Part shown: positions 51 to 40,333 of the stretch, in pieces | Position numbering within the stretch: the first letter of the stretch is position 1 | Layout: each line of letters opens with the position of its first letter | IMG/VR virus record: IMGVR_UViG_3300036376_000002 | Span: 1 to 40,417 of that record | DNA: 40,417 bases | Source of the DNA: a virus | Lineage: Duplodnaviria; Caudoviricetes | Reading direction: 5' to 3' (one strand) | The notes under the pieces: model-generated | Databases searched by the model: none | Told to the model about the DNA's origin: nothing | The model's input: only the letters and a program-made list of their open reading frames with translations | Made by a program: the position numbers and the translations under genes

Positions 51-127
51 TGGTGTGCCCGAGAGGATTCGAACCTCCGGCCCCCGGATTAGGAATCCGA
101 TGCTCTATCCTGCTGAGCTACGGGCAC
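51..127 (-). tRNA. tRNA-Arg (anticodon CCT), intact, CCA encoded
   Basis: Reverse complement reads GTGCCCGTAGCTCAGCAGGATAGAGCATCGGATTCCTAATCCGGGGGCCGGAGGTTCGAATCCTCTCGGGCACACCA: acceptor stem, D-arm, TTCCTAA anticodon loop, GTTCGAATC T-loop, CCA. Confidence 0.97.
89..127 (+). repeat. attL, 39-bp identity block (5' half of the tRNA through the anticodon loop)
   Basis: TTAGGAATCCGATGCTCTATCCTGCTGAGCTACGGGCAC, identical to 40291-40329. Confidence 0.95.
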
Positions 128-8366: not shown

Positions 8367-8843
8367 GTGACCGGCTTCGTTGCCATGCCCCCGCCGCCAC
8401 AGTCGCCCGATGGCGCGACCATCGAGGCGGACGAATGGTTTCCGGGCATCGATGCCAACGCGATGCGCGACAGCATGCAGCTGCGCCTCGATGTGCCGCA
8501 TCCCCGGCTTGTCGCGGCGCTCCACGGCGCGCTGCTGACGGTCACAGGGGACCTTGCCGACTGGAAGGCCACCCATGTCGCTGCCGGTGCCGCAGATCTG
8601 GCCGCGGTCGATCCGGACACCACCATCGACGGCCAGCACCGCCTGACCTTGCTGTTCCTGCGCGCGGTGCGCTTCGCCGCGGCGGCCGAGCTCGCCGATC
8701 TCGCCCGGGATTCGGCTGCCACGCAGGAAGCCGTCGACCGCCTCGCCGACGAACTCAGCACCGCCGCCGAGATGCGCCGCGTGTCGATCGCCGCCATCCG
8801 CGACATGCTCAAGGTGACCCGCGTCGCCGTGGAGCTGATCTGA
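8367..8843 (+). CDS. L: Head completion/stabilization protein
   Basis: DEWFPGID...AIRDMLKVTRVAVELI; synteny. Confidence 0.85.
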   Translation: MTGFVAMPPPPQSPDGATIEADEWFPGIDANAMRDSMQLRLDVPHPRLVAALHGALLTVTGDLADWKATHVAAGAADLAAVDPDTTIDGQHRLTLLFLRAVRFAAAAELADLARDSAATQEAVDRLADELSTAAEMRRVSIAAIRDMLKVTRVAVELI

Positions 8844-9061
8844 TGGCTGAGGCACCGCTCGCTACGACCGCTCTCGCCGGGGAAACGCTCGACGCGCTGT
8901 GCTGGCGCGTCCTTGGCCGCACCGACGGCGTCGTCGAGCAGGCCCTCGCCCTCAACCCCGCACATGCCGCCAGCGTCATCCTGCCCGAGGGTGCCGCCAT
9001 CCTGTTGCCGTCCTCGATCGTCGCCGCACCGGCCATCGAGACGGTCCAGCTGTGGAACTGA
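8843..9061 (+). CDS. X: Tail protein X (LysM-like)
   Basis: GETLDALCWRVLGRT...LNP...VQLWN; TGATG coupling to L. Confidence 0.9.
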   Translation: MAEAPLATTALAGETLDALCWRVLGRTDGVVEQALALNPAHAASVILPEGAAILLPSSIVAAPAIETVQLWN

Positions 9062-9066
9062 TACCG

Positions 9067-9447
9067 ATGACTGACTGGCGCGAATTCATGCTCTGGTGGA
9101 CCTTCTCGATCCTCGCTGCCGCGACCGTCGTCGGCGCGAAGCTGGGCATGCTGCTGTTCGCGATGGCACCCGACCCGCCTGCGGAGCCGGAGCTTGCCGC
9201 CCACTGGCGTCGCCGGCGGCGCTGGCTGGTCTATGCCGAGCTGTCGGCCCTGCCGGCCTTTGCCACCATCGCCGTCACCCTGACCGCGCACGGCAACCTC
9301 GAGCCGATCATGTCGGTGCTGCTGTCGATGGGCTTGGGCGGCGTCGGATTCGTGCTGCTGCTGGACGCCGTCCAGTGGCTGTTCCGCAAGCGCATCGGCA
9401 TGCCGCAGCCGATCGCTCCGCCCGATGGTGGAGAGCCCCATGCCTGA
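9067..9447 (+). CDS. Putative holin (126 aa, about 3 transmembrane segments)
   Basis: Hydrophobic segments, basic RRRRR loop, first gene after X where P2 places its holin. Confidence 0.6.
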   Translation: MTDWREFMLWWTFSILAAATVVGAKLGMLLFAMAPDPPAEPELAAHWRRRRRWLVYAELSALPAFATIAVTLTAHGNLEPIMSVLLSMGLGGVGFVLLLDAVQWLFRKRIGMPQPIAPPDGGEPHA

Positions 9448-9592
9448 CCTGGTCCTGATCCTCGTCGCCCTGTCGACCGCCTTCGCCCTGTTCGCGGGCC
9501 TGAAGGCGGTCTGGCACAACAGCCGGCTGCGCGCCGGCGGGCAGGAGCCGCTGGGCACCTTCCGTAACCTTGTCGATCGCCAGAGGAGATAG
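9440..9592 (+). CDS. Small single-TM lysis-cassette protein (50 aa)
   Basis: Read by hand: MPDLVLILVALSTAFALFAGLKAVWHNSRLRAGG...; overlaps the holin end and carries the RBS of the next gene. Confidence 0.55.
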   Translation: MPDLVLILVALSTAFALFAGLKAVWHNSRLRAGGQEPLGTFRNLVDRQRR

Positions 9593-9594
9593 CG

Positions 9595-9978
9595 ATGTGG
9601 ACCTATGACCAGTCGAGCGGCGAGCTGCGCAACGCCAAAGGCCAGCTGGTATCGACCGGCTACAGCGGCCATGGCCGCGGCAAGAACAATCCCGCGCTGC
9701 AGGGCGTCAAGGGCGTCGGGCCGATCCCGCGCGGCCGCTGGCGCATGCAGTCGATCTACGACAGCAAGAACGTTGGGCCACGCGCGATCACGCTCTGGTC
9801 GCTCGACGATCCGACGATCGACGATCGCCACGAGGCAACCGGTCGCAGCGCCTTCCGCATTCATGGCGACAGCGTCCGTGCGCCCGGCACCGGATCACGC
9901 GGCTGCATCATCCTGCCTCGCGCTGTCCGCGTCGCCATGTGGGCCTCTGGCGATCGCGAGATCGAGGTCATCGCGTGA
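9595..9978 (+). CDS. DUF2778/Tlde1-like L,D-transpeptidase-fold protein, putative endolysin
   Basis: GYSGHG..KNNP......GVGPIPRG and catalytic-type FRIHG...SRGCI; occupies the endolysin slot; GAGGAG RBS. Confidence 0.8.
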   Translation: MWTYDQSSGELRNAKGQLVSTGYSGHGRGKNNPALQGVKGVGPIPRGRWRMQSIYDSKNVGPRAITLWSLDDPTIDDRHEATGRSAFRIHGDSVRAPGTGSRGCIILPRAVRVAMWASGDREIEVIA

Positions 9979-10097
9979 GCGAGCCACGCAACCACGAATC
10001 GTGGCCGCTCGACCTGATGCGACAGGCGGCGCTGCCGTTCATCGTGGCGCTGATCATGCTCGGCCTGCTGCTCAACTGGTTCGTCCGCACCAACTGA
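9975..10097 (+). CDS. Small single-TM protein (40 aa)
   Basis: Read by hand: GTG start overlapping the previous TGA; ...AALPFIVALIMLGLLLNWFVRTN. Confidence 0.5.
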   Translation: MSEPRNHESWPLDLMRQAALPFIVALIMLGLLLNWFVRTN

Positions 10098-10109: not shown

Positions 10110-10478
10110 ATGCTTCTTCGAATTGCCATCCTGTCCATCATTGCCTTGCTGATGACCGGCTGCGCGGGGATCGGCGGGATCGCCGCCGGCATCCCGCCCA
10201 GCCCCGCCGCGGCGGCCGACCAGACCACGCTCGATGAGCGCGGAGCGATCGCCGTCGAGATCGCCTATCAGGCGGCAGCACGCGCGGTCGAGGCGTTGAC
10301 CGATGCCGGTCTTATCGAGGGTGCCGCTGCCACGCGCGTCGCAGAAGTCGACCGCAAGGCCTTTGCCGCCGTGCAGGCCGCGCGAACGGCGTATGACGCC
10401 GGCAATTCAGCCAGCTACGCCGAGGCCTTGGCCAAGGCCCGATCCGAGATCGCCGCCCTGCTGCGATTGATCACCTAG
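10110..10478 (+). CDS. Lipoprotein in the lysis cassette (spanin-like candidate)
   Basis: Signal peptide with lipobox LMTG-C, Ala-rich helical body. Confidence 0.7.
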   Translation: MLLRIAILSIIALLMTGCAGIGGIAAGIPPSPAAAADQTTLDERGAIAVEIAYQAAARAVEALTDAGLIEGAAATRVAEVDRKAFAAVQAARTAYDAGNSASYAEALAKARSEIAALLRLIT

Positions 10479-10488
10479 GGAGCAAGCC

Positions 10489-10698
10489 ATGAGCCTCAAC
10501 CAGATTCTCGAGATCCTGCGCAGCGGCGCCGATGCCGCCCACGCCTTTCGTCAGCTGTTCGATCTGGCGGTCACCACCTTCAGCGAAGCCGACCAGGCCA
10601 AGCTCAAGGCCGCCTATGCCGAAGCGCGCATCGCCAGCGACGCGGCGCATGACCGCCTGCAGGACAAGCTCGCCGACGCGGCCAGTCGCCCGGCCTGA
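10489..10698 (+). CDS. Hypothetical helical protein (69 aa)
   Basis: GGGAG RBS, coupled to R by TGATG. Confidence 0.7.
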   Translation: MSLNQILEILRSGADAAHAFRQLFDLAVTTFSEADQAKLKAAYAEARIASDAAHDRLQDKLADAASRPA

Positions 10699-11180
10699 TG
10701 CTCAAGCCTGACGCGCTCCGCACCCACATCACCGCGGCGCTTCCGGATCTCGCGCGGGATCCGGAGCGTCTGCGGATGTGGATCGATCGCGGATCGATCC
10801 GCTCGCGCCAGACCGCCTCGCTCGCCTTCCAATATGGCTATCGCCTCAATGTGGTGGTGCTCGACTGGACGCTGTCGCCGTCGATCATCTTCATCCTGCT
10901 GGTCGACTGGCTCCGCCGTCACCAGCCCGACCTCGTCGCCAGCCAGTCGGCGCCCGGCTTCACCTTCGAGGCCGACATCATTGACACGCGCACCATGGAC
11001 CTGTCGATCGAGCTTGACCTCACCGAGACCGTGTCGACCGTCCCCCGCGCCGGCGGCGGCTTCGACCTGCAGCATCATGCCGAGCCTGTCCCGATGTTCC
11101 CCGACGATGTCGAGCTTGCTCCGGCGCTGACCGAGCTGTGGCTCGGCGCCGATCGCATCCTCCCCGGCCCTGCCGTCTGA
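10698..11180 (+). CDS. R: Tail completion protein R
   Basis: MLKPDALR...DPERLRMWIDRG...WLRRHQPD...DLSIELDLTE. Confidence 0.9.
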   Translation: MLKPDALRTHITAALPDLARDPERLRMWIDRGSIRSRQTASLAFQYGYRLNVVVLDWTLSPSIIFILLVDWLRRHQPDLVASQSAPGFTFEADIIDTRTMDLSIELDLTETVSTVPRAGGGFDLQHHAEPVPMFPDDVELAPALTELWLGADRILPGPAV

Positions 11181-11678: not shown

Positions 11679-11703
11679 CCTTGTAACGGTGCGTGTTACA
11701 AGG
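11679..11703. promoter_or_regulatory. Late-promoter activator palindrome upstream of J
   Basis: CCTTGTAACGGTGCGTGTTACAAGG; its reverse complement differs from the 5203 copy at one position. Confidence 0.8.
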
Positions 11704-18602: not shown

Positions 18603-21600
18603 GTGAAGCCACTCTACATACTGCACTTGTCTGATCTGCATTGGTCGAAATCAATAGCACGAGATGTTGACATTGTATTCGACGCACTCAAAGAGGATTT
18701 AAAAGAGCTGGCAAAAACCGGCATCACGCCAGATCTATGCATATTCAGCGGAGACCTCGCAATTGGCGGCGATGATATTGACGTGATTGACGATGCTTGG
18801 CAAGCATTCATTACCCCTCTTTCGCAGTTTTTAAGTCTATCGCCTTGTCGAGTGTTTGTAACTCCAGGCAATCATGACATTGCCCGCGAGACCGTGCGTT
18901 CAATCCCAACAATCGATGCGTCTCTTCGTACAAGTTTGACTTCAATACAGGCTGTCAATAAGTTTATTGACTCACCGGCATCACCGTCTAGCGAATCCGG
19001 ACTCGCGCTAAAGCGGATGGACAACTTTTATGTTGTTCACGATACAAGGACAGCCGATCCAATTTCAGCCACCCCCTATCTAAGAACATATAGCGTTGAT
19101 ATTGATGGCTTAAAAGTAGGCGTGGCTTGCTTGAACTCTGCTTGGCGTGCAACAGGAGAAAAGGACGACATCGACTACGGCCATCTGCTCATTGGCGAAC
19201 GCAATATCGACAGTGCCGCCAGTGATCTCGCTGACTGCGACTATCGGATCGCAGTCCACCATCACCCGCTGGACTGGCTTGAGCCATCGGACCACAGAGC
19301 AGTTGACCTTGTTATCAAACGCCAGTTTGATTTAACGTGTGTAGGGCACCTTCACAATGCTTCGCCAGAAAAGCTTGTTAATTCAAACGGGAGCTGCATT
19401 GTAAGTCAAGCCGGTAGCATATTTGCAGGACGAGCATGGTTTAACGGATACAATATTATTGAAGTGGATATACCGAGTCGAACTCATCGCGTCCATGTTA
19501 GAAGTTACTTTGACGAAGGCCGTAGATTTGATAAGGCAACGAATGTTTGCCGAGATGGAGTTATTGAATTTACATCGGACCCAAACGTCGATCGCAGAAG
19601 GATTGACCTAGTAGAGCTCTTTCTTAGAGAGAACAGGCAGATCCTAAGAGACTCCGTCGCAAATCACCTCAATCTTATTGGCTCCGACGAATTTGATGCG
19701 GAAAGCCTAATTCGTCAGTACGTGACCCCGCCCATAGTAAGGAGGCGCTTAGCGACTGATGAAGGCAACACAGAACAATCAAACAAGATATACTCTGTTT
19801 CAGAAATAATATCAGGTCATGATAACATTCTTATAATTGGCGAGCGACACACCGGAAAATCGAGCTTAGCACACTATATTGCTCATGAGCTTGTATTTGG
19901 CAAAGGAAGGTGTGATACTATACCGCTTGTGATAGACTTGAATCAGCATAAGTATAATAAGTATTCCCTGAGGCGTGCGGTCAGGTCGTATTACGAAACA
20001 ATCCCTGTTGGATTTGACATTGACTCCGCGATAAATGATGGCATTTTCACGTTTATTATAGATAACCTGCCGGTTAGTGAACAGGACATGAAGGCTTTGG
20101 CCAGCCACATTGACGAGCATTCAGCTTGTCGGTGGATCGCCATGGGCACGCCCAACACAGATGGGGTGTCACCTGACCGACTCTTTAAGGAGCATCTTCC
20201 TTCCTTTGCCAAATTCGGCATCCGTGAACTCAATAGGGCAGGGATTCGGGCTGTAGCTCGCATTTGGACACGTGGATCTGATTCAGACGCATCCCGGGTT
20301 TATGACGCAGTAATGCGGCAGCTTCAGCGCGATGGCCTGCCTCGGACTCCCTATATGATCTCGCTTTTGGTTTGGGCAATACAGCAAAAAATAGGTCGGC
20401 AAAGTCTGAATGAAGCAACGCTTTTAGAAAATATTATTGATCACCTGATCGGGAAGGCCGACTTTCGGCTTGCGTCGCGCAGCGCTTTTAGTCCTCGAGC
20501 AAAGGAGATTACACTGCAGGCGATTGCCCAGTTTATGTTTGATCGCGGAGGAGTCGCGGGCGAGAACGATACGTTAAGTTATTTGATATCGTTTTTTGAA
20601 TCAAAGAAGGTTCCATACGTAGCATCAGATGTGTTGGACAAGCTGGTATCATGTGGCGTTATATCACGAGACGGCGATGGTGTCCGCTTTAAGTACCCCG
20701 CCTTTCAAGAGTATTTTATGGCAAAAAAGCTGGGATCAGACGCGGCTGTGTTAGGTCATTATTTGAAAGATTTGAATTTCCTTCAAGTGCGCCGCGAGCT
20801 CGAGCTATTGTCTGGACTCAGGCAAGAGAATGACGAAATTATTCAATCGATTATGACGTTGCTCAATTCACGGGTGCCTGACATATTTAGCCGGATAAAC
20901 GTGAAAGATTTTGATAGTGACGAGCGCTCTAGGTTACAACCCGGGACAACCCTGAGCCAATTAAATAGAATTAAAAAGAAACGCCTGACTTACGCACAGT
21001 TTGATGCCATGATGGATGAGGTTGATCGTAGAGCACTGTCGCGAGGGGAGCGTCCACTCAGTGAAAGTCTAGAGCGAGCAGATGGTGATTATGTAGCTGC
21101 TGCACGCGAGAGGGAAGCGGAGTCAATTGCAATTGATGCGAATGATATCAGAAAGCCTTTAAGCCCATATACTCACATGGCGGCCATCGATACGCTAGCG
21201 CGCGTTATCCGAAATTCGGACTTCAGTGATTTCGCAGTAAAAGGTCCAGCGGTGCGGATGGTGCTAGAGAGTTGGGTCAGGATATATTTGCTAGTTATAG
21301 AAGAGCTTAAGGCTCTTATTGCAGCATCAGACAGTGATGCGTCTTCTCCGATAAATGAAAAAGATCGGGCATTGCTGAACTATATTGTGTCAAAGTGGGT
21401 TTTCTCGATAATTGGTCGCGGTGTAGTCGACCACATGTCAACCCCGTCGATGGCAGGCACGCTGACGTCATTTTTGGACTCGGGTGAAATATCGACCGGC
21501 GAGATATTGCTTGTGCTCTATCTCCTTGAGGACATTGATGCTAACGATTGGCGACAGCATTGGTCCGCCTTGATTGCAGATAAATCACGATCTGGTTTTG

Positions 21601-21803
21601 TTATAGACTGTATCGTGACGAGACTGGGTGTAATCACTCACTCAAAGGCGCTAGACGATGATCAAGCGGAGCGTGTTCGAGAAATTGTTGACGAGATCCA
21701 GCGTCGACTGGACTGGACTCCTCAGAAGAAAAATGAGGTTCTGCAAGACTTAAAGGATGTCGCAAATTTGGCAGCACTGGGAGATCTAACCAGCGGCCCT
21801 TAA
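18603..21803 (+). CDS. Calcineurin-like metallophosphoesterase fused to a NACHT/STAND NTPase (1066 aa); candidate anti-phage protein
   Basis: HLSDLH, SGD, PGNHD, HHHP and GHLH phosphoesterase motifs; Walker A GERHTGKS, Walker B FIIDN, FKYPAFQEYF NACHT winged-helix motif; visibly AT-richer than the backbone. Confidence 0.85.
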   Translation: MKPLYILHLSDLHWSKSIARDVDIVFDALKEDLKELAKTGITPDLCIFSGDLAIGGDDIDVIDDAWQAFITPLSQFLSLSPCRVFVTPGNHDIARETVRSIPTIDASLRTSLTSIQAVNKFIDSPASPSSESGLALKRMDNFYVVHDTRTADPISATPYLRTYSVDIDGLKVGVACLNSAWRATGEKDDIDYGHLLIGERNIDSAASDLADCDYRIAVHHHPLDWLEPSDHRAVDLVIKRQFDLTCVGHLHNASPEKLVNSNGSCIVSQAGSIFAGRAWFNGYNIIEVDIPSRTHRVHVRSYFDEGRRFDKATNVCRDGVIEFTSDPNVDRRRIDLVELFLRENRQILRDSVANHLNLIGSDEFDAESLIRQYVTPPIVRRRLATDEGNTEQSNKIYSVSEIISGHDNILIIGERHTGKSSLAHYIAHELVFGKGRCDTIPLVIDLNQHKYNKYSLRRAVRSYYETIPVGFDIDSAINDGIFTFIIDNLPVSEQDMKALASHIDEHSACRWIAMGTPNTDGVSPDRLFKEHLPSFAKFGIRELNRAGIRAVARIWTRGSDSDASRVYDAVMRQLQRDGLPRTPYMISLLVWAIQQKIGRQSLNEATLLENIIDHLIGKADFRLASRSAFSPRAKEITLQAIAQFMFDRGGVAGENDTLSYLISFFESKKVPYVASDVLDKLVSCGVISRDGDGVRFKYPAFQEYFMAKKLGSDAAVLGHYLKDLNFLQVRRELELLSGLRQENDEIIQSIMTLLNSRVPDIFSRINVKDFDSDERSRLQPGTTLSQLNRIKKKRLTYAQFDAMMDEVDRRALSRGERPLSESLERADGDYVAAAREREAESIAIDANDIRKPLSPYTHMAAIDTLARVIRNSDFSDFAVKGPAVRMVLESWVRIYLLVIEELKALIAASDSDASSPINEKDRALLNYIVSKWVFSIIGRGVVDHMSTPSMAGTLTSFLDSGEISTGEILLVLYLLEDIDANDWRQHWSALIADKSRSGFVIDCIVTRLGVITHSKALDDDQAERVREIVDEIQRRLDWTPQKKNEVLQDLKDVANLAALGDLTSGP

Positions 21804-28758: not shown

Positions 28759-29793
28759 ATGAGGGGTGGTGTTGTGAGAACTTTAATTGCGGCCTTGATT
28801 ACGATTCTTGCGCTCTTGGCTCCGGTAGCCTCAACCGCGCAGCCTTCCGATCGATGCAGCGATGTACTTAATGGAGGCGTTTTCAATTATGCGCGACTGA
28901 GAGATAATAATTATTTTAATCAGGTCGTCTGGTCGCGGTTTTTTAGAAGTAGTGATTCCAGCAGTCAATCTGATAGCTCGTTGGGCATTTCGGTTCCGAT
29001 AGGAGATGTCGTTGTAGGTGGGACATTTGATTCCTCATCGGACAGCCGAATCAGAAGCCGGCAGGATTATCAGTATTTCAATGAGATTACGGCATCGCGT
29101 GAGATCGACGTGGCCCTCATGACCGCAGATCCGGCAATTCTGTCTGCTTGGAGCAGTTGCATGCGCAATAGAGGCGGGCTGTCGGCCCGCTTCGAAGCTG
29201 TCTCGGCTACCGATGTCTTCCTCGTCATCGAGTTTTATAATCAAGCCACGATTACGTCATTCACTTTAGACGAGGATGTCTATCTTCCTGACGGCGTGAC
29301 CGCTGTGCAAAATGGGAGATGCCTGCGCGCTGGTTATGTCTTCAGGGTTGGCGAACCCTGCACTGTCTTGATCAAGACAACCGACGGAATGGTGAGGTTT
29401 CCCGTCGTAATCGGATCTGCAACAGCTTGGTTGCCGGCGCGAATACGCCTCGTCAGGGAAGCTTTACCTTTCCCATTGCCGGAACGCATACTCGATTTGC
29501 AAGGTGGCAATAGTGGGAACAATGGCTGGCACAGCCAATCCTTTTCGCTTTCGGACCAGCAGATTGCGGACGGATGGTCGTTCTCGCCTTCCGGAGGAAC
29601 GTTCAACCTTTCCTCGACGTCAATAGACAATCCAGACACACGATGCCACAGCGCCAGCGTTTCGGCGGCTGGACACACCGTCACCTACACCTACTATATG
29701 CATACTCCGGACCGGACCAGAAATGACGGCAGGGCCCTCTGCCACATAACGGCGAATATCGAAATCGTTCGTGCGCGCTGGATTTCGCAATAG
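28759..29793 (+). CDS. Exported hypothetical protein (344 aa), moron
   Basis: Sec signal peptide ending ...ASTA, six Cys, Ser/Thr-rich; lower GC than the backbone. Confidence 0.8.
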   Translation: MRGGVVRTLIAALITILALLAPVASTAQPSDRCSDVLNGGVFNYARLRDNNYFNQVVWSRFFRSSDSSSQSDSSLGISVPIGDVVVGGTFDSSSDSRIRSRQDYQYFNEITASREIDVALMTADPAILSAWSSCMRNRGGLSARFEAVSATDVFLVIEFYNQATITSFTLDEDVYLPDGVTAVQNGRCLRAGYVFRVGEPCTVLIKTTDGMVRFPVVIGSATAWLPARIRLVREALPFPLPERILDLQGGNSGNNGWHSQSFSLSDQQIADGWSFSPSGGTFNLSSTSIDNPDTRCHSASVSAAGHTVTYTYYMHTPDRTRNDGRALCHITANIEIVRARWISQ

Positions 29794-30131: not shown

Positions 30132-30683
30132 TCATTGCGTTGGCCGCTGCCCCAGCCCACCTTCCGGTATCCGAATCTCCGTCATCTTCCAGCTAAGGCC
30201 GTCTCGTTCAAACACGAAGCTCGGCACCTTCTCATCCTCGGTGATCGGAGTGACGGTGAACTTGTCGAGGCCGTCTCGCTCCAGATTATAGTCGACCGGC
30301 TCACCAAGCGCCTCGGTCTGCTGTTGCGGACCCCGCGGACGACCCGCGATCATCATCTGGCGCATGCCCTCCTTGGTCACGACGCTGTCGACGATCGTCC
30401 CGACCATGCTGTTGGCCAGCGCCATCCCCAACGCCGCGAACGGATTGTTGGCGTTCTGCTGACGTGCCATTTCTGCGGCCATCTGGGCCTGCAGCTGCTC
30501 GCGCAAAGACGTCCTGACCGATTCAAAGTCGATATGCTCGGCCAGAGCATCGGCATCGCCCTCTACAGCCGCTGCCCGCATCTCCCGCAGCGTCCAATAG
30601 GGTGAGCCAAAGTACCAGCCCGCCCCGAGGCCGAGCAGCAGCACCGCGATGATCGCAACAATCCATTTTCTTTGCATTGCCAT
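30132..30683 (-). CDS. DUF2939-like membrane-anchored protein
   Basis: N-terminal TM, then SPYWTL...GDADAL...IDFESVRTSL, C-terminal RDGLSWKMT. Confidence 0.8.
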   Translation of the reverse strand: MAMQRKWIVAIIAVLLLGLGAGWYFGSPYWTLREMRAAAVEGDADALAEHIDFESVRTSLREQLQAQMAAEMARQQNANNPFAALGMALANSMVGTIVDSVVTKEGMRQMMIAGRPRGPQQQTEALGEPVDYNLERDGLDKFTVTPITEDEKVPSFVFERDGLSWKMTEIRIPEGGLGQRPTQ

Positions 30684-30793: not shown

Positions 30794-31786
30794 CTAATTG
30801 TAGCTCACTTCAATCGGACCCGGATTCATGACAACGATTTGCCATTCAACATCCCACGAAATACCCTCATCGCTGGCAGCGCACTGGACAACCATGGCTC
30901 GATCACCAAGCCAAGCCACTCGGCCACTTATGACTCTACCGGTGGTCAGTCCCCTAAAGGCGGGGACCGAGCGCTCACAAATGGCAAACTCCTGACGGGG
31001 CTCGATTATCGCAGCCCCCCTGTCAAGGTCGTACCTGAAATATGGATTCTGAAATAGGAACGACAGCCGATAATTTGTTGAGTAAAGCGAAAAAGCCATT
31101 ACAACTAATGCGATTGGCATTCTAAACTTATATATAAATCTACGACTTATAAAGCCATATCGGAATAATGATGCTCGCCCGCTAAAGTGACGGTATGCCT
31201 CCACAATCAATGCTATGCATAATAAATATGCCGGGAGTGCATTATATGCAACCCATCTAATCTTCCGCCATACCTCGTAGAAGGCATCATAAATCCATAC
31301 CGGCACTGATCCTGTCACCAGCAGAGAGTCATCGCCCAATCTCGTATATGTCGCCGAATAAACGACAACGACCAGCAATCCCACGAAGCAGACCAGTCGG
31401 TACCAAAGCGATTGCATGTCCCGCCTTTTGCCGATCCTCCAAAGAACCATAAAGAACCAAATCACCGGCAGAAGAAATATTAGAAAAAATAGGGCCGTCT
31501 CTAATACGTCAACGATGAATGAAATACCATCCCGGGCAATATCACCAAAAGTTGCAATCCTTAGATATGGGATTCCCTGCCGAGAAAATGCATTGTTATA
31601 GAGCCATGCAGTTATGACTGTTCCAATGGCAGTCATAAGTGAAATAAGTTCGACAAAAATTGCGATGGGCGAACGGTTGCTTGTCTTCGTAAGAATCGGG
31701 GATTCTGGTGCATCCTTAGCTGCGCTGCGTTCGACTTCATCAACCATGTGCATCCCCCCGGACACTTTGCGGCTGGGCCGCTTCAC
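30794..31786 (-). CDS. Polytopic membrane protein (about 5 TM), coupled to the repressor gene
   Basis: GTG start overlaps the cI stop; several hydrophobic helices; AT-rich. Confidence 0.75.
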   Translation of the reverse strand: MKRPSRKVSGGMHMVDEVERSAAKDAPESPILTKTSNRSPIAIFVELISLMTAIGTVITAWLYNNAFSRQGIPYLRIATFGDIARDGISFIVDVLETALFFLIFLLPVIWFFMVLWRIGKRRDMQSLWYRLVCFVGLLVVVVYSATYTRLGDDSLLVTGSVPVWIYDAFYEVWRKIRWVAYNALPAYLLCIALIVEAYRHFSGRASLFRYGFISRRFIYKFRMPIALVVMAFSLYSTNYRLSFLFQNPYFRYDLDRGAAIIEPRQEFAICERSVPAFRGLTTGRVISGRVAWLGDRAMVVQCAASDEGISWDVEWQIVVMNPGPIEVSYN

Positions 31787-37364: not shown

Positions 37365-37621
37365 ACGGCGGCTTCAGCCAGCACGTCCGCATCCTCGAAT
37401 CAACGATGGCCACCGCGACACCGGCCTGCATCGATACCGGGTCGGAGCCGGGCGCATGGGCCACTGCCCTCGCCCACAGCCCGACCTTGCACTGCGCCTG
37501 CTGCGGCGTGCCCGCGCACAGCTGTGCGGTGGTGCAGGAAGCCCGCGCCGAGGCGCTGGCGGACACCGCCGACGGCGCCGGCGGGCTAGGTGACTATCCG
37601 CCGGAGTTGCTGCTGTCATGA
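37361..37621 (+). CDS. Hypothetical Cys-containing protein (86 aa)
   Basis: ATGA-coupled; HCACC...HSC. Confidence 0.5.
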   Translation: MNGGFSQHVRILESTMATATPACIDTGSEPGAWATALAHSPTLHCACCGVPAHSCAVVQEARAEALADTADGAGGLGDYPPELLLS

Positions 37622-37998
37622 GCGACCTCTGCGCCCGCTGCGATGCCCCCCGGCCCGATGGTGCCGACTGGGCCCAGCACACCAGCGGCCTCACCTCCAC
37701 CTTCTACCTCGTCTGCCCCGCTTGCGAGGAGAAGAAGGGCGGCATGTCGATCCGCTCGGGGGACGTGAGCGCCACCGACGATCAGCTCAAACTCTTCATC
37801 GAACGCATCGAGCGCCTCGAGGAGGAGAAGCGCGGGCTCGCTGACGACATCCGCGACACCTACGCCGAGGCGAAGGCAGTCGGATACGACGCCAAGATCA
37901 TGCGCGAAGTCGTCAAGCTTCGCCGCCTTCACCCCAACGATCGCGCCGAACGAGACGCCTTGCTCGACACCTATCGGGCCGCGCTCGGCCTCGGCTGA
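37618..37998 (+). CDS. gapR: GapR/DUF2312 nucleoid-associated protein homologue with an N-terminal CxxC...CxxC extension
   Basis: QLKLFIERIERLEEEKRGLADDIRDTYAEAKAVGYDAKIMREVVKLR...LLDTYRAALG. Confidence 0.9.
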   Translation: MSDLCARCDAPRPDGADWAQHTSGLTSTFYLVCPACEEKKGGMSIRSGDVSATDDQLKLFIERIERLEEEKRGLADDIRDTYAEAKAVGYDAKIMREVVKLRRLHPNDRAERDALLDTYRAALGLG

Positions 37999-38777: not shown

Positions 38778-39066
38778 ACGTCTGCTCTACCGTGAGGCAG
38801 ATGCGGCACGATTGCTGGCAATCTGTCCCCGCAATCTCCGCGCACTGCGCCAACAGGGGAAAATTCCATACATCTTGATCGGAAGGCGCGTCTGTTACAG
38901 CATCGACGATCTCCGCCGCTTTATTGAAAGCGCTCGTACATGCGTCTCTACACCCGCCCCGGATCGCCCTTCATCTGGTACGACGTCACCGTCGCCGGCG
39001 ATCGACTTCGCGGCTCATCGAAATGCACGACAAAGGTCGAAGCCCGCCGCGTCGTCCAGTCGCTGA
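38770..39066 (+). CDS. xis: Excisionase-like HTH protein
   Basis: LYREADAARLLAI...GKIPYILIGRRVCYSIDDLRRFI; overlaps the int start. Confidence 0.8.
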   Translation: MTERLLYREADAARLLAICPRNLRALRQQGKIPYILIGRRVCYSIDDLRRFIESARTCVSTPAPDRPSSGTTSPSPAIDFAAHRNARQRSKPAASSSR

Positions 39067-39968
39067 TCGAGGCCCGTCAGCGGCAGCGTGGCGTCAAGGA
39101 TGAATGGCGGCTGCGCGAGCTGACCGGCGCCTATTGGAACGACATCGGCCAGCACCGGAAAAGCGAAGAGGATATCTTCCGCTACCTCTCGGCGCTCAAC
39201 GACATCATCGGTCAGGACAAGCCGGTCAGCCAGATCGACACTGCCCTGCTGCTCGACTATCGCGCGCGCCGCCGCAGCTGGAGCAAGACAGGCTGCTCGA
39301 TCGTCACCGTCAACCGGGATCTGGCAACGCTCAAGGCAGCTATGAATCATGCGCGCGACGCATATGGCAAGCCGGTGCCGGCGATCGCTTGGTCCCGCGT
39401 GATGGTGAAGGAGAATCCATGGCGCACGCGCTACGCCAGCGCCGGCGAGTTCGCTCGCATCGTTGAACACGCTCACCCGTCGCTGCGGCCAATGATCATC
39501 GCGGCCGTCACCACTGGCCTCAGGCGCGGCAACATCCTCAAGCTGCAGTGGCACCAGGTCGACATGGACGGCGGCAATATCACATTGGGCACGATGAAGT
39601 CCGGCAAGCCCCATGCGGTCAAGATGACCGGCCCCCTGCGCGCAGCCCTCGCCACCCTACAGCCCGACGCCGACCAACGCCGCGGCCCGGTGTTCGATAC
39701 GAAGAACTGGCGCAGGCGATGGCACGCCTGCCGCACCGCGGCCAAAGTACCGGATCTGCGCTGGCACGATCTCCGCCACACCTTCGCCAGCTGGGCCCGC
39801 CTCGCCGGCGCCGACCTGCAGGGCCTGATGGAAGCAATGGACCACAGCAGCATCGCAGTCACAATGCGCTACAGCCACGTCACCCCGACGGCCGACAGCA
39901 GCGCCTTCGATAAGGTGGCATCGTTACTGGAACCAGCACCCAAGAAAGCAAAGGCAAAACGTGCATGA
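38940..39968 (+). CDS. int: Tyrosine integrase
   Basis: TGLRRGNI, K, HDLRHTFAS, DHS...TMRYSH catalytic residues; adjacent to attR. Confidence 0.95.
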   Translation: MRLYTRPGSPFIWYDVTVAGDRLRGSSKCTTKVEARRVVQSLIEARQRQRGVKDEWRLRELTGAYWNDIGQHRKSEEDIFRYLSALNDIIGQDKPVSQIDTALLLDYRARRRSWSKTGCSIVTVNRDLATLKAAMNHARDAYGKPVPAIAWSRVMVKENPWRTRYASAGEFARIVEHAHPSLRPMIIAAVTTGLRRGNILKLQWHQVDMDGGNITLGTMKSGKPHAVKMTGPLRAALATLQPDADQRRGPVFDTKNWRRRWHACRTAAKVPDLRWHDLRHTFASWARLAGADLQGLMEAMDHSSIAVTMRYSHVTPTADSSAFDKVASLLEPAPKKAKAKRA

Positions 39969-40249: not shown

Positions 40250-40290
40250 GCGCCTGCAAAGACCCAACTAATCCGCCAAAAACCGCCAGC

Positions 40291-40333
<43 letters not shown>

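Follow-up and report, generated by a model that had tools for sequence, protein, structure and literature searches.

The lysis region of a P2-like prophage

The window analysed here, the whole 40,417-nucleotide stretch of a tailed-phage record, is a whole virus (CheckV completeness 100). Pfam and PHROGs identify genes of P2 type for the portal, terminase, capsid, tail, repressor, Ogr, primase and integrase. A 47-nt repeat within a tRNA-Arg gene recurs at position 40283, so that both prophage ends are contained in the record. The closest homologs in named genomes are mostly from Sphingomonas, Sphingobium and Caulobacter, which makes sphingomonads or caulobacters the likely hosts and, judging from these sequence matches, the host of this phage probably a sphingomonad.

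The lysis genes of P2 sit between gpX and gpR, and the 127-residue protein studied here is encoded in the corresponding interval of the window (Table 1). The 25-bp palindrome copies that stand ahead of late gene blocks are likely, by analogy, to be binding sites of an Ogr-like late activator; an Ogr/Delta gene (PF04606) is present in the record.

Table 1. Features of the prophage ends and the lysis region, in window coordinates
Feature	Position	Strand	Remarks
Left attachment repeat within tRNA-Arg	81..127		47 nt, 94% identical to 40283-40329; tRNA-Arg 51-127, minus strand
25-bp palindrome ahead of the gpO-N-M-L-X-lysis-R-S run	5203..5227		Copies at 11679 and 21907 (repeat search)
P2 gpX tail gene, left slot border	8843..9061	+	PF05489, E 4e-16
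126-aa protein, likely holin	9067..9447	+	3 predicted membrane helices (hydropathy script)
50-aa one-helix membrane protein accompanying the holin-like gene	9440..9592	+	Homologs in L043, L045 and L051, 46-49% identical and in the corresponding position
Tlde1/YkuD-fold cysteine peptidase, predicted endolysin	9595..9978	+	127 aa, ATG start; H90, C104, R84
40-aa one-helix ORF	9975..10097	+	Script call
122-aa predicted lipoprotein (Cys18)	10110..10478	+	Three-helix body; at the Rz/Rz1 place of relatives
69-aa helical protein accompanying the lipoprotein	10489..10698	+	Just downstream of the lipoprotein in 18/20 viral loci
P2 gpR tail completion gene, right slot border	10698..11180	+	PF06891, E 6e-43
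Right attachment repeat	40283..40329		After the integrase gene (38940-39968)

An earlier, sequence-only reading had placed the gene between a holin-like gene and a lipoprotein gene. This order holds, but the three genes are not directly adjacent, as the two one-helix ORFs (9440-9592 and 9975-10097) intervene. The 126-aa holin-like protein had no match in Pfam, PHROGs or NCBIfam, and the 40-aa ORF had neither a family match nor a homolog in the loci compared. Small ORFs resembling the 50-aa gene follow most holin-like homologs; that its product might be an antiholin or a holin partner is a guess.

Elsewhere in the window, a gene amid the tail genes (18603-21803) encodes a 1,066-aa protein with metallophosphoesterase and STAND NTPase domains that matches the NCBIfam DS8 anti-phage model (E 6e-44) at a score far below the cut-off; it is a likely defence gene. 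The accessory genes between gpD and the repressor (28759-29793, 30132-30683, 30794-31786) encode a DUF2939 protein and two proteins without a family match, one of 344 aa that looks exported and one of 330 aa that is a membrane protein. Furthermore, a GapR-like DNA-binding gene (37618-37998; PF10073, E 4e-32) is present, as one is in the viral record G035.

A Tlde1-domain protein without an export signal

The 127-aa protein matches the Tlde1 domain family PF10908 in Pfam with 55.3 bits (gathering cut-off 30.1; E 1.1e-14), the YkuD family PF03734 with 23.4 bits, which is exactly the cut-off, and phrog_24118, a PHROGs family of unknown function, with E 3e-41. It contains the motifs NNP (residues 31-33), GPIPRG (42-47) and IHGDSVRAPGTGSRGCI, as well as the catalytic His ... 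(S/T)-x-G-C motif of PF10908, with 13 residues separating H90 and C104. H90, G91, S101, G103 and C104 are invariant across 56 aligned homologs, and the arginine six residues before the catalytic histidine, R84 in this protein, is kept in 111 of 112 homologs. Position 102, which is arginine here and histidine in Tlde1a, is variable across the same 112. A hydropathy script revealed no hydrophobic segment of the kind expected for a signal peptide or SAR helix. Thus the ORF call and this script confirmed the length, the motifs (including H-x13-C) and the lack of a signal peptide that had been noted from the sequence alone, and the HMM search that the sequence-only reading had proposed bore out its assignment to DUF2778/YkuD.

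The AlphaFold2 model (pLDDT 96.7) also supports this assignment, its best structural match being Tlde1a (Tae5) of Salmonella Typhimurium (PDB 7UMA/7UO3/7UO8) with Z 12.6 and an rmsd of 2.4 over 114 residues at 21% identity. Pgp2 (Z 11.8) ties with Tlde1a within 1 Z, Csd6 and Bd1075 come next, and DpaA is found at rank 14 with Z 7.9. L,D-transpeptidase-type folds fill all of the first 20 VIA-align rows, and Foldseek concurs on the fold. Sequence searches of solved structures gave no match for the single protein and a best E of 0.18 for the profile; the placement among solved structures comes from the fold searches.

The protein shares with Tlde1a the Pfam domain, the fold, the His/Ser/Gly/Cys order, an arginine six residues before the histidine and the lack of a signal peptide, R84 being equated with R115 of Tlde1a by its spacing and not by residue-level alignment. 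However, at 127 aa it is 46 residues shorter than Tlde1a (173 aa), and its histidine and cysteine are 14 rather than 10 residues apart. While Tlde1a has two disulfides and a capping insertion (PMC9638812, partial text), the phage protein contains a single cysteine and therefore lacks both disulfides. Furthermore, Tlde1a is a carboxypeptidase/exchange effector that is paired with a DUF2195 immunity protein, whereas the phage gene lies in a lysis cassette; a Pfam search of the record detected no DUF2195 gene, and neither T6SS, hcp or vgrG neighbours nor an Rhs/PAAR fusion was found for the gene in the whole record.

Three other identities were considered and rejected. With 784 homologs at E<=0.001 among 795 candidates, the gene is not a chance ORF. 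It is not a housekeeping L,D-transpeptidase, as its PF03734 score only equals the cut-off and neither an export signal nor an accessory domain accompanies the domain. Nor is it a T6SS effector, given that the whole record is a P2-like phage, that the protein is single-domain and that gpV and gpD belong to the baseplate of the phage itself.

No other wall hydrolase is detected in the record

Consistent with the sequence-only reading, which recognised no lysozyme, amidase, transglycosylase or M15 peptidase in the prophage, none was detected when 50 ORFs were compared with Pfam, 26 with PHROGs and 21 with NCBIfam. No other lysin emerged from a Pfam search of a further 11 ORFs, nine of them new or re-delimited, or from whole-record searches for nine families (GH108, GH24, GH19, M15_3, M15_4, Amidase_2, SLT, muramidase and TIGR02594) combined with tblastn of 22 lysin or candidate-lysin exemplars. 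Positive controls were matched in viral records for seven of the nine families; of the other two, SLT gave matches in test records and PF13539 in a bacterial control alone. As the PF03734 search of the window's own record missed the gene at 9595-9978, such whole-record searches can miss weak matches, and another lysin may be hidden among the unannotated ORFs. Within the reach of the family searches, the product of the gene is likely to be the sole wall hydrolase of this phage.

The Tlde1 gene takes the place of standard lysins

To compare the contents of the gpX-gpR slot, we used 80 loci fetched with the capsid, of which 55 spanned both borders, and added six loci fetched with the Tlde1 gene, giving 61. 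These held a DUF3380 muramidase (18), GH19 (18), GH108 (7), the Tlde1 gene (6), GH24 (5), M15 (3) or nothing (4). Exactly one lysin class was thus present in 57 of the 61, none in four, and in no case did the Tlde1 gene occur with a standard lysin, the labels being derived by BLASTP to Pfam-checked exemplars and many of the loci being near-copies. Since none of the 55 capsid-fetched loci carries it, the Tlde1 gene is a minority solution for this slot. One further P2-like case with the gene is L001.

The nearest phages (L043, L045 and L051) are 78-81% identical to the window in the capsid, 67-70% in the holin-like gene and 46-49% in the 50-aa gene. They have kept both upstream membrane genes, and a GH108 lysozyme stands at the position of the Tlde1 gene. 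The downstream lipoprotein is common to loci in which it is preceded by GH108 (L050, L065) and to loci in which it is preceded by GH24 (L053, L063). The sequence-only reading had regarded this position as an endolysin slot, and this is supported by relatives in which GH108, GH24 or M15 directly replaces the Tlde1 gene. The cassette resembles the P2-type X-R cassette in position and order, relatives holding GH108, GH24, GH19, a DUF3380 muramidase or M15; it differs in that the enzyme is of the Cys-His YkuD class and that a lipoprotein and a 69-aa protein are found where Rz/Rz1 usually stand.

Comparable arrangements were found beyond this group. In L019, L035, L124, L131 and L176 the gene order is holin, Tlde1 gene and spanin-like gene(s), and in L070 a similar-looking holin and spanins flank a GH24 lysozyme. 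Recognised holins precede the homologs in L004 (LydA), L018 and L019 (phrog_2359, E 2e-14), and in L019 an Rz-like gene (phrog_12081, E 1.5e-4) lies downstream. A homolog of the 126-aa holin-like protein was present in 57 viral loci, with a lysin just downstream in 34 and none there in 23; the lysins of the 34 were of eight kinds, the Tlde1 gene occurring twice. Small membrane-protein genes lie on both sides of the homolog in 19 of 26 genome loci in which it is at least 53% identical, as opposed to four of 54 below that identity.

Holin-like pairs between gpX and gpR without a lysin were seen in 16 P2-like loci (L211-L225, L232). When five such empty-slot records (G053-G057) were checked genome-wide, all five had a lysin elsewhere (Amidase_2 in two, GH24 in one, TIGR02594 in two), located in a separate cassette, mostly on the opposite strand, beyond gpS.

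Co-occurrence with standard lysins in whole viral records

We surveyed 39 records with a Tlde1 gene, 16 of which are at least 90% complete. GH108, GH24, M15_3, GH19 and M15_4 were absent from all 39, while each of the 11 control records had exactly one of GH108, GH24 and M15_3. Other lysins in the 39 were SLT (5), Amidase_2 (1, in the 467-kb record G038), a muramidase (1, G033) and TIGR02594 (1, in the 101-kb record G006, about 94 kb from the Tlde1 gene). With Pfam and PHROGs added, another muralytic protein was found in eight of the 16 near-complete records and none was detected in the other eight. Those with another such protein comprise five small records of 15-17 kb with a membrane-anchored lytic enzyme, one toxin-immunity-type insert, the 101-kb record and the 467-kb record. 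In G033 the Tlde1 gene lies after gpD, outside the lysis slot, and the phage has its own muramidase. No second lysin was found by Pfam among the 69 called genes of G016, G022 and G035, which are partial gene sets. Three further cases also combine a Tlde1 gene or DUF2778 domain with a standard lysin, so members of the family do not always act as the only lysin: Erwinia phage Y3 has GH108 2.7 kb from its Tlde1 gene, Burkholderia phage JC1 carries DUF2778 apart from the lysis module, and in L178 GH24 is directly beside the Tlde1 gene.

Three of the seven small records (L300, L301 and L302, the records G015, G024 and G027) were checked, and all three encode a PRD1 P3 capsid and a protein-primed polymerase, and are therefore considered tectivirus-like. 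Their Tlde1 gene is close to one end and follows the gene of a membrane-anchored lytic enzyme, the family of which differs between records. The C-terminal membrane helix of this second enzyme presumably likens it to the PRD1 entry enzyme P7; the tectivirus-like records are not a clean test of a sole lysin.

Matches were found in 58 of 50,697 phage records, 57 of them jumbo phages of Erwinia, Dickeya or Yersinia and one the 4,360-nt microvirus vB_Cib_ssDNA_P1 (L039, MG214764). Gene 2 (1328-1738) of this six-gene phage, which sits between the capsid and Rep genes, is 40% identical and matches PF10908 with E 8e-12; it was left unannotated, and its product was not found in virions (PMC6030365, partial text). 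At the same place, six microvirus relatives have an M15_3 peptidase (Ruegeria phage DSS3-P22), a protein annotated as endolysin with a weak M15_4 match (RHph_N39), one homolog of the RHph_N39 protein and, in three cases, nothing recognisable. The peptidase in this slot has been described as horizontally acquired and not ubiquitous (PMC9865509, partial text). A scan of viral contigs yielded no more amoyviruses.

A lipoprotein pair at the position of the spanins

The 122-aa lipoprotein has homologs (48-50% identical) that follow GH108 or GH24 lysins, and in many phages of alphaproteobacterial type it comes, together with the 69-aa protein, after a lysin of the GH108, GH24, M15, M23 or SLT-like kind. 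It follows a standard lysin in at least 16 of 20 viral loci, and the Tlde1 gene in none of them; as it thus occurs behind standard lysins in loci without a Tlde1 gene, it is not a cognate immunity protein. Its model has a pLDDT of 78.7, and the fold search returned only an unnamed phage lipoprotein (E 4e-4). Pfam and PHROGs gave no spanin family match for the lipoprotein, no recognisable Rz/Rz1 was found in the record, and in six P2-like loci no Rz/Rz1 was called in the interval from the lysin to gpR. L053 and L057 resemble each other in their holins and lysozymes, but one carries the pair and the other spanin-like genes. From this distribution the pair is a candidate spanin substitute.

Relationship to toxin domains

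Tlde1 tips borne on Rhs/PAAR proteins are 40-47% identical to the 127-aa protein over about 125 residues (14 proteins compared). These tips are fused to delivery domains, whereas the phage protein is single-domain; among the longer relatives there are also a few in which the domain is joined to a lysozyme, GH25 or PG-binding domain. The profile reaches 2,642 cluster representatives. In a quick, unrooted tree of 76 rows, from which two mis-cut Rhs rows (P0138 and P0147) were excluded, the 38 phage rows fell on one side of a branch with SH-aLRT 87.7; alignments of 120 columns with 112 and with 78 rows gave trees of poor resolution, and the 78-row tree mixed phage and other rows. The evolutionary link between phage lysis and T6SS toxins that the sequence-only reading had suggested therefore stands at the level of sequence, but an unrooted tree gives no direction of transfer between phage and toxin.

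More distant homologs (below 53% identity) are mostly either paired, in beta- and gammaproteobacteria, with a gene whose product has a signal peptide, or solitary, in Acidobacteria. The presumed immunity proteins of 12 toxin-type loci, so labelled from their position and signal-peptide-like starts, had no Pfam match. The solitary acidobacterial homologs (L146-L195) lack a signal peptide and occupy conserved chromosomal places, which we take to be either downstream of a DNA polymerase X-like gene or ahead of one that resembles secG.

Possible modes of action

As the Tlde1 gene stands exactly where the closest relatives carry a lysozyme, its product is likely to be a wall-cutting enzyme, and that it serves as the lysis enzyme of this phage we consider highly probable. 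That it does so by direct cleavage of crosslinks after mDAP is a prediction towards which we lean with some reserve. The enzyme would be made late, accumulate in the cytoplasm and be freed by lesions that the 126-aa holin-like protein forms, whereupon Cys104 would attack the mDAP3 carbonyl and water would resolve the thioester. The L,D bond after meso-diaminopimelate that would be cut is the same in 3-3 bridges (mDAP-mDAP) and in the 4-3 donor stem (mDAP-D-Ala), so that its cleavage in stems that are crosslinked would loosen the wall mesh; the outer membrane may then be dealt with by the lipoprotein and its 69-aa companion, acting instead of Rz/Rz1.

The sequence-only reading had argued from alphaproteobacterial walls rich in 3-3 crosslinks. 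This rationale found no support: the sole sphingomonad profile found, that of Zymomonas, is mainly 4-3, with Tetra and TetraTetra as major species and the term '3-3' unused in the available part of the text (PMC13101528), no report of 3-3 crosslinks in sphingomonad walls was found in the literature searched, and Tlde1a prefers monomeric tetrapeptides and gave no product from a 4-3 bridge (10.1101/2020.02.18.954545, partial text). Five likely host-type genomes contain 1-8 YkuD matches each, a count that has no bearing on the share of such crosslinks. If the host wall resembles that of Zymomonas, a sole lysin must cut mDAP-D-Ala in 4-3 donor stems and not just 3-3 bridges, and because Tlde1a leaves 4-3 bridges uncut, the activity of the phage enzyme cannot be deduced directly from that relative. 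Its low identity to Tlde1a, shorter chain and lack of the disulfides leave room for a different chemistry. Enzymes of the YkuD fold can, moreover, act as endopeptidases, LdtCd2 of C. difficile fully cleaving 3-3 dimers and LdtCd3 weakly cleaving 4-3 dimers (PMC10792238, partial text).

A doubtful but serious alternative is that the product is a lysis enzyme which acts as Tlde1a does, trimming D-Ala4 and swapping D-amino acids so that new wall stays uncrosslinked and the growing cell slowly bursts. Such trimming is what has been measured for the closest relative with a solved structure, which needs about 4.5 h to burst E. coli (10.1101/2020.02.18.954545, partial text), and the release of vB_Cib_ssDNA_P1 is likewise slow, at roughly 3 to 5 h (PMC6030365, partial text). 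The arginine spacing of the D-amino-acid pocket, kept nearly throughout the homologs, points the same way; in Tlde1a, R115 binds the free carboxylate of a D-amino acid (PMC9638812, partial text), a group that is absent from the 4-3 donor stem, which counts against crosslink cleavage. The neighbouring structural matches include further trimming enzymes, Pgp2 and Bd1075 being carboxypeptidases. Csd6 is one as well (PMC9638812, partial text). However, the Tlde1 gene swaps one-for-one with direct hydrolases in otherwise unchanged holin and spanin cassettes, and its replacing such hydrolases behind ordinary holins is why we prefer crosslink cleavage. A triggered holin, moreover, stops growth and wall synthesis, so that little growth would be left to sabotage and direct hydrolysis is favoured over interference with new synthesis.

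Cutting of links between the wall and outer-membrane proteins, also raised in the sequence-only reading, is improbable as the only activity, since no second lysin was found that could do the main work. In this case the enzyme would only detach outer-membrane proteins or lipoproteins, as the YkuD-fold amidase DpaA does (PMC12729407, partial text), and an unrecognised gene would be the true hydrolase. The fold match to DpaA and the unusual lipoprotein in place of Rz/Rz1 fit this idea, but DpaA ranks well below Tlde1a, homologs also occur in cassettes with ordinary spanins, and the partial gene sets of G016, G022 and G035 held no second lysin either. We give still less weight to a toxin-immunity insert or a wall-modifying accessory gene, with the lipoprotein as immunity protein. 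Homologs of 42-50% identity do occur in Burkholderia, Snodgrassella, Vibrio and elsewhere as small genes paired with one for a lipoprotein or a protein with a signal peptide, one such case being the pair after gpD in the P2-like prophage G033. The lipoprotein of the window, however, belongs to a family that accompanies standard lysins, as described above; the G+C content of the Tlde1 gene is level with that of the surrounding operon, neither a plus-strand terminator nor a sigma-70 promoter was found in the lysis gene run, and no other lysin was detected.

Comparison with known systems and implications

By its position the 127-aa protein is an endolysin, and the genomic evidence for a role in lysis is strong; its catalytic class is a prediction. 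LdtCd2, LdtCd3, DpaA, Csd6, Pgp2 and Bd1075 share its fold and catalytic pair and hydrolyse stems, 3-3 bridges or wall-lipoprotein links, but they are host remodelling enzymes, mostly larger and exported, and none is a phage lysis protein. Among candidate phage lysins, the 'YkuD' cluster of PhaLP has 10 entries, one of them with PF10908 (PMC8310338, partial text), DUF5675 (LysPd160) has been put forward, on structural grounds, as a lysin domain of C82-like type (10.64898/2026.04.11.717860, partial text), and a gut-phage survey includes one YkuD domain fused to GH25 (PMC13284279, partial text). The DUF5675 protein is only a distant fold match to the 127-aa protein (E 0.1), and in the portions of these sources at hand the PhaLP YkuD and DUF5675 entries are listings or structural proposals that come with no reported lysis or enzyme test. 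In the literature accessible to us, to which most subscription papers do not belong, we found neither DUF2778 proposed or tested as an endolysin nor, in the partial texts, a functional test of the YkuD/Tlde1 catalytic type in phage lysis.

The broadest reading of these data, which we hold to be evenly poised between right and wrong, is that such proteins form an endolysin class of their own: a YkuD-fold cysteine endopeptidase of 120-127 aa that would alone lyse alphaproteobacteria via L,D crosslink cleavage, that would be used by tailed phages, PRD1-like tectiviruses and a microvirus, that would belong to the same subfamily as the Rhs/PAAR tips, and that would be accompanied in this phage by a lipoprotein and 69-aa pair replacing the spanins.

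If this is true, a fold familiar from enzymes that form crosslinks and from T6SS sabotage would also serve as a stand-alone lysis enzyme, and a cysteine-peptidase class would join the list of endolysins. A peptide-cutting lysin would, we infer, be indifferent to glycan O-acetylation, which affects 56% of the muropeptides in Zymomonas (PMC13101528, partial text). As a small soluble protein, the enzyme would be suited to asking what makes a YkuD enzyme a crosslink hydrolase. Furthermore, the class would explain seemingly lysin-less phage genomes, including that of the cultured microvirus with its unannotated gene 2 (PMC6030365, partial text), and this gene offers a direct experimental handle on the role of the Tlde1 domain in lysis.
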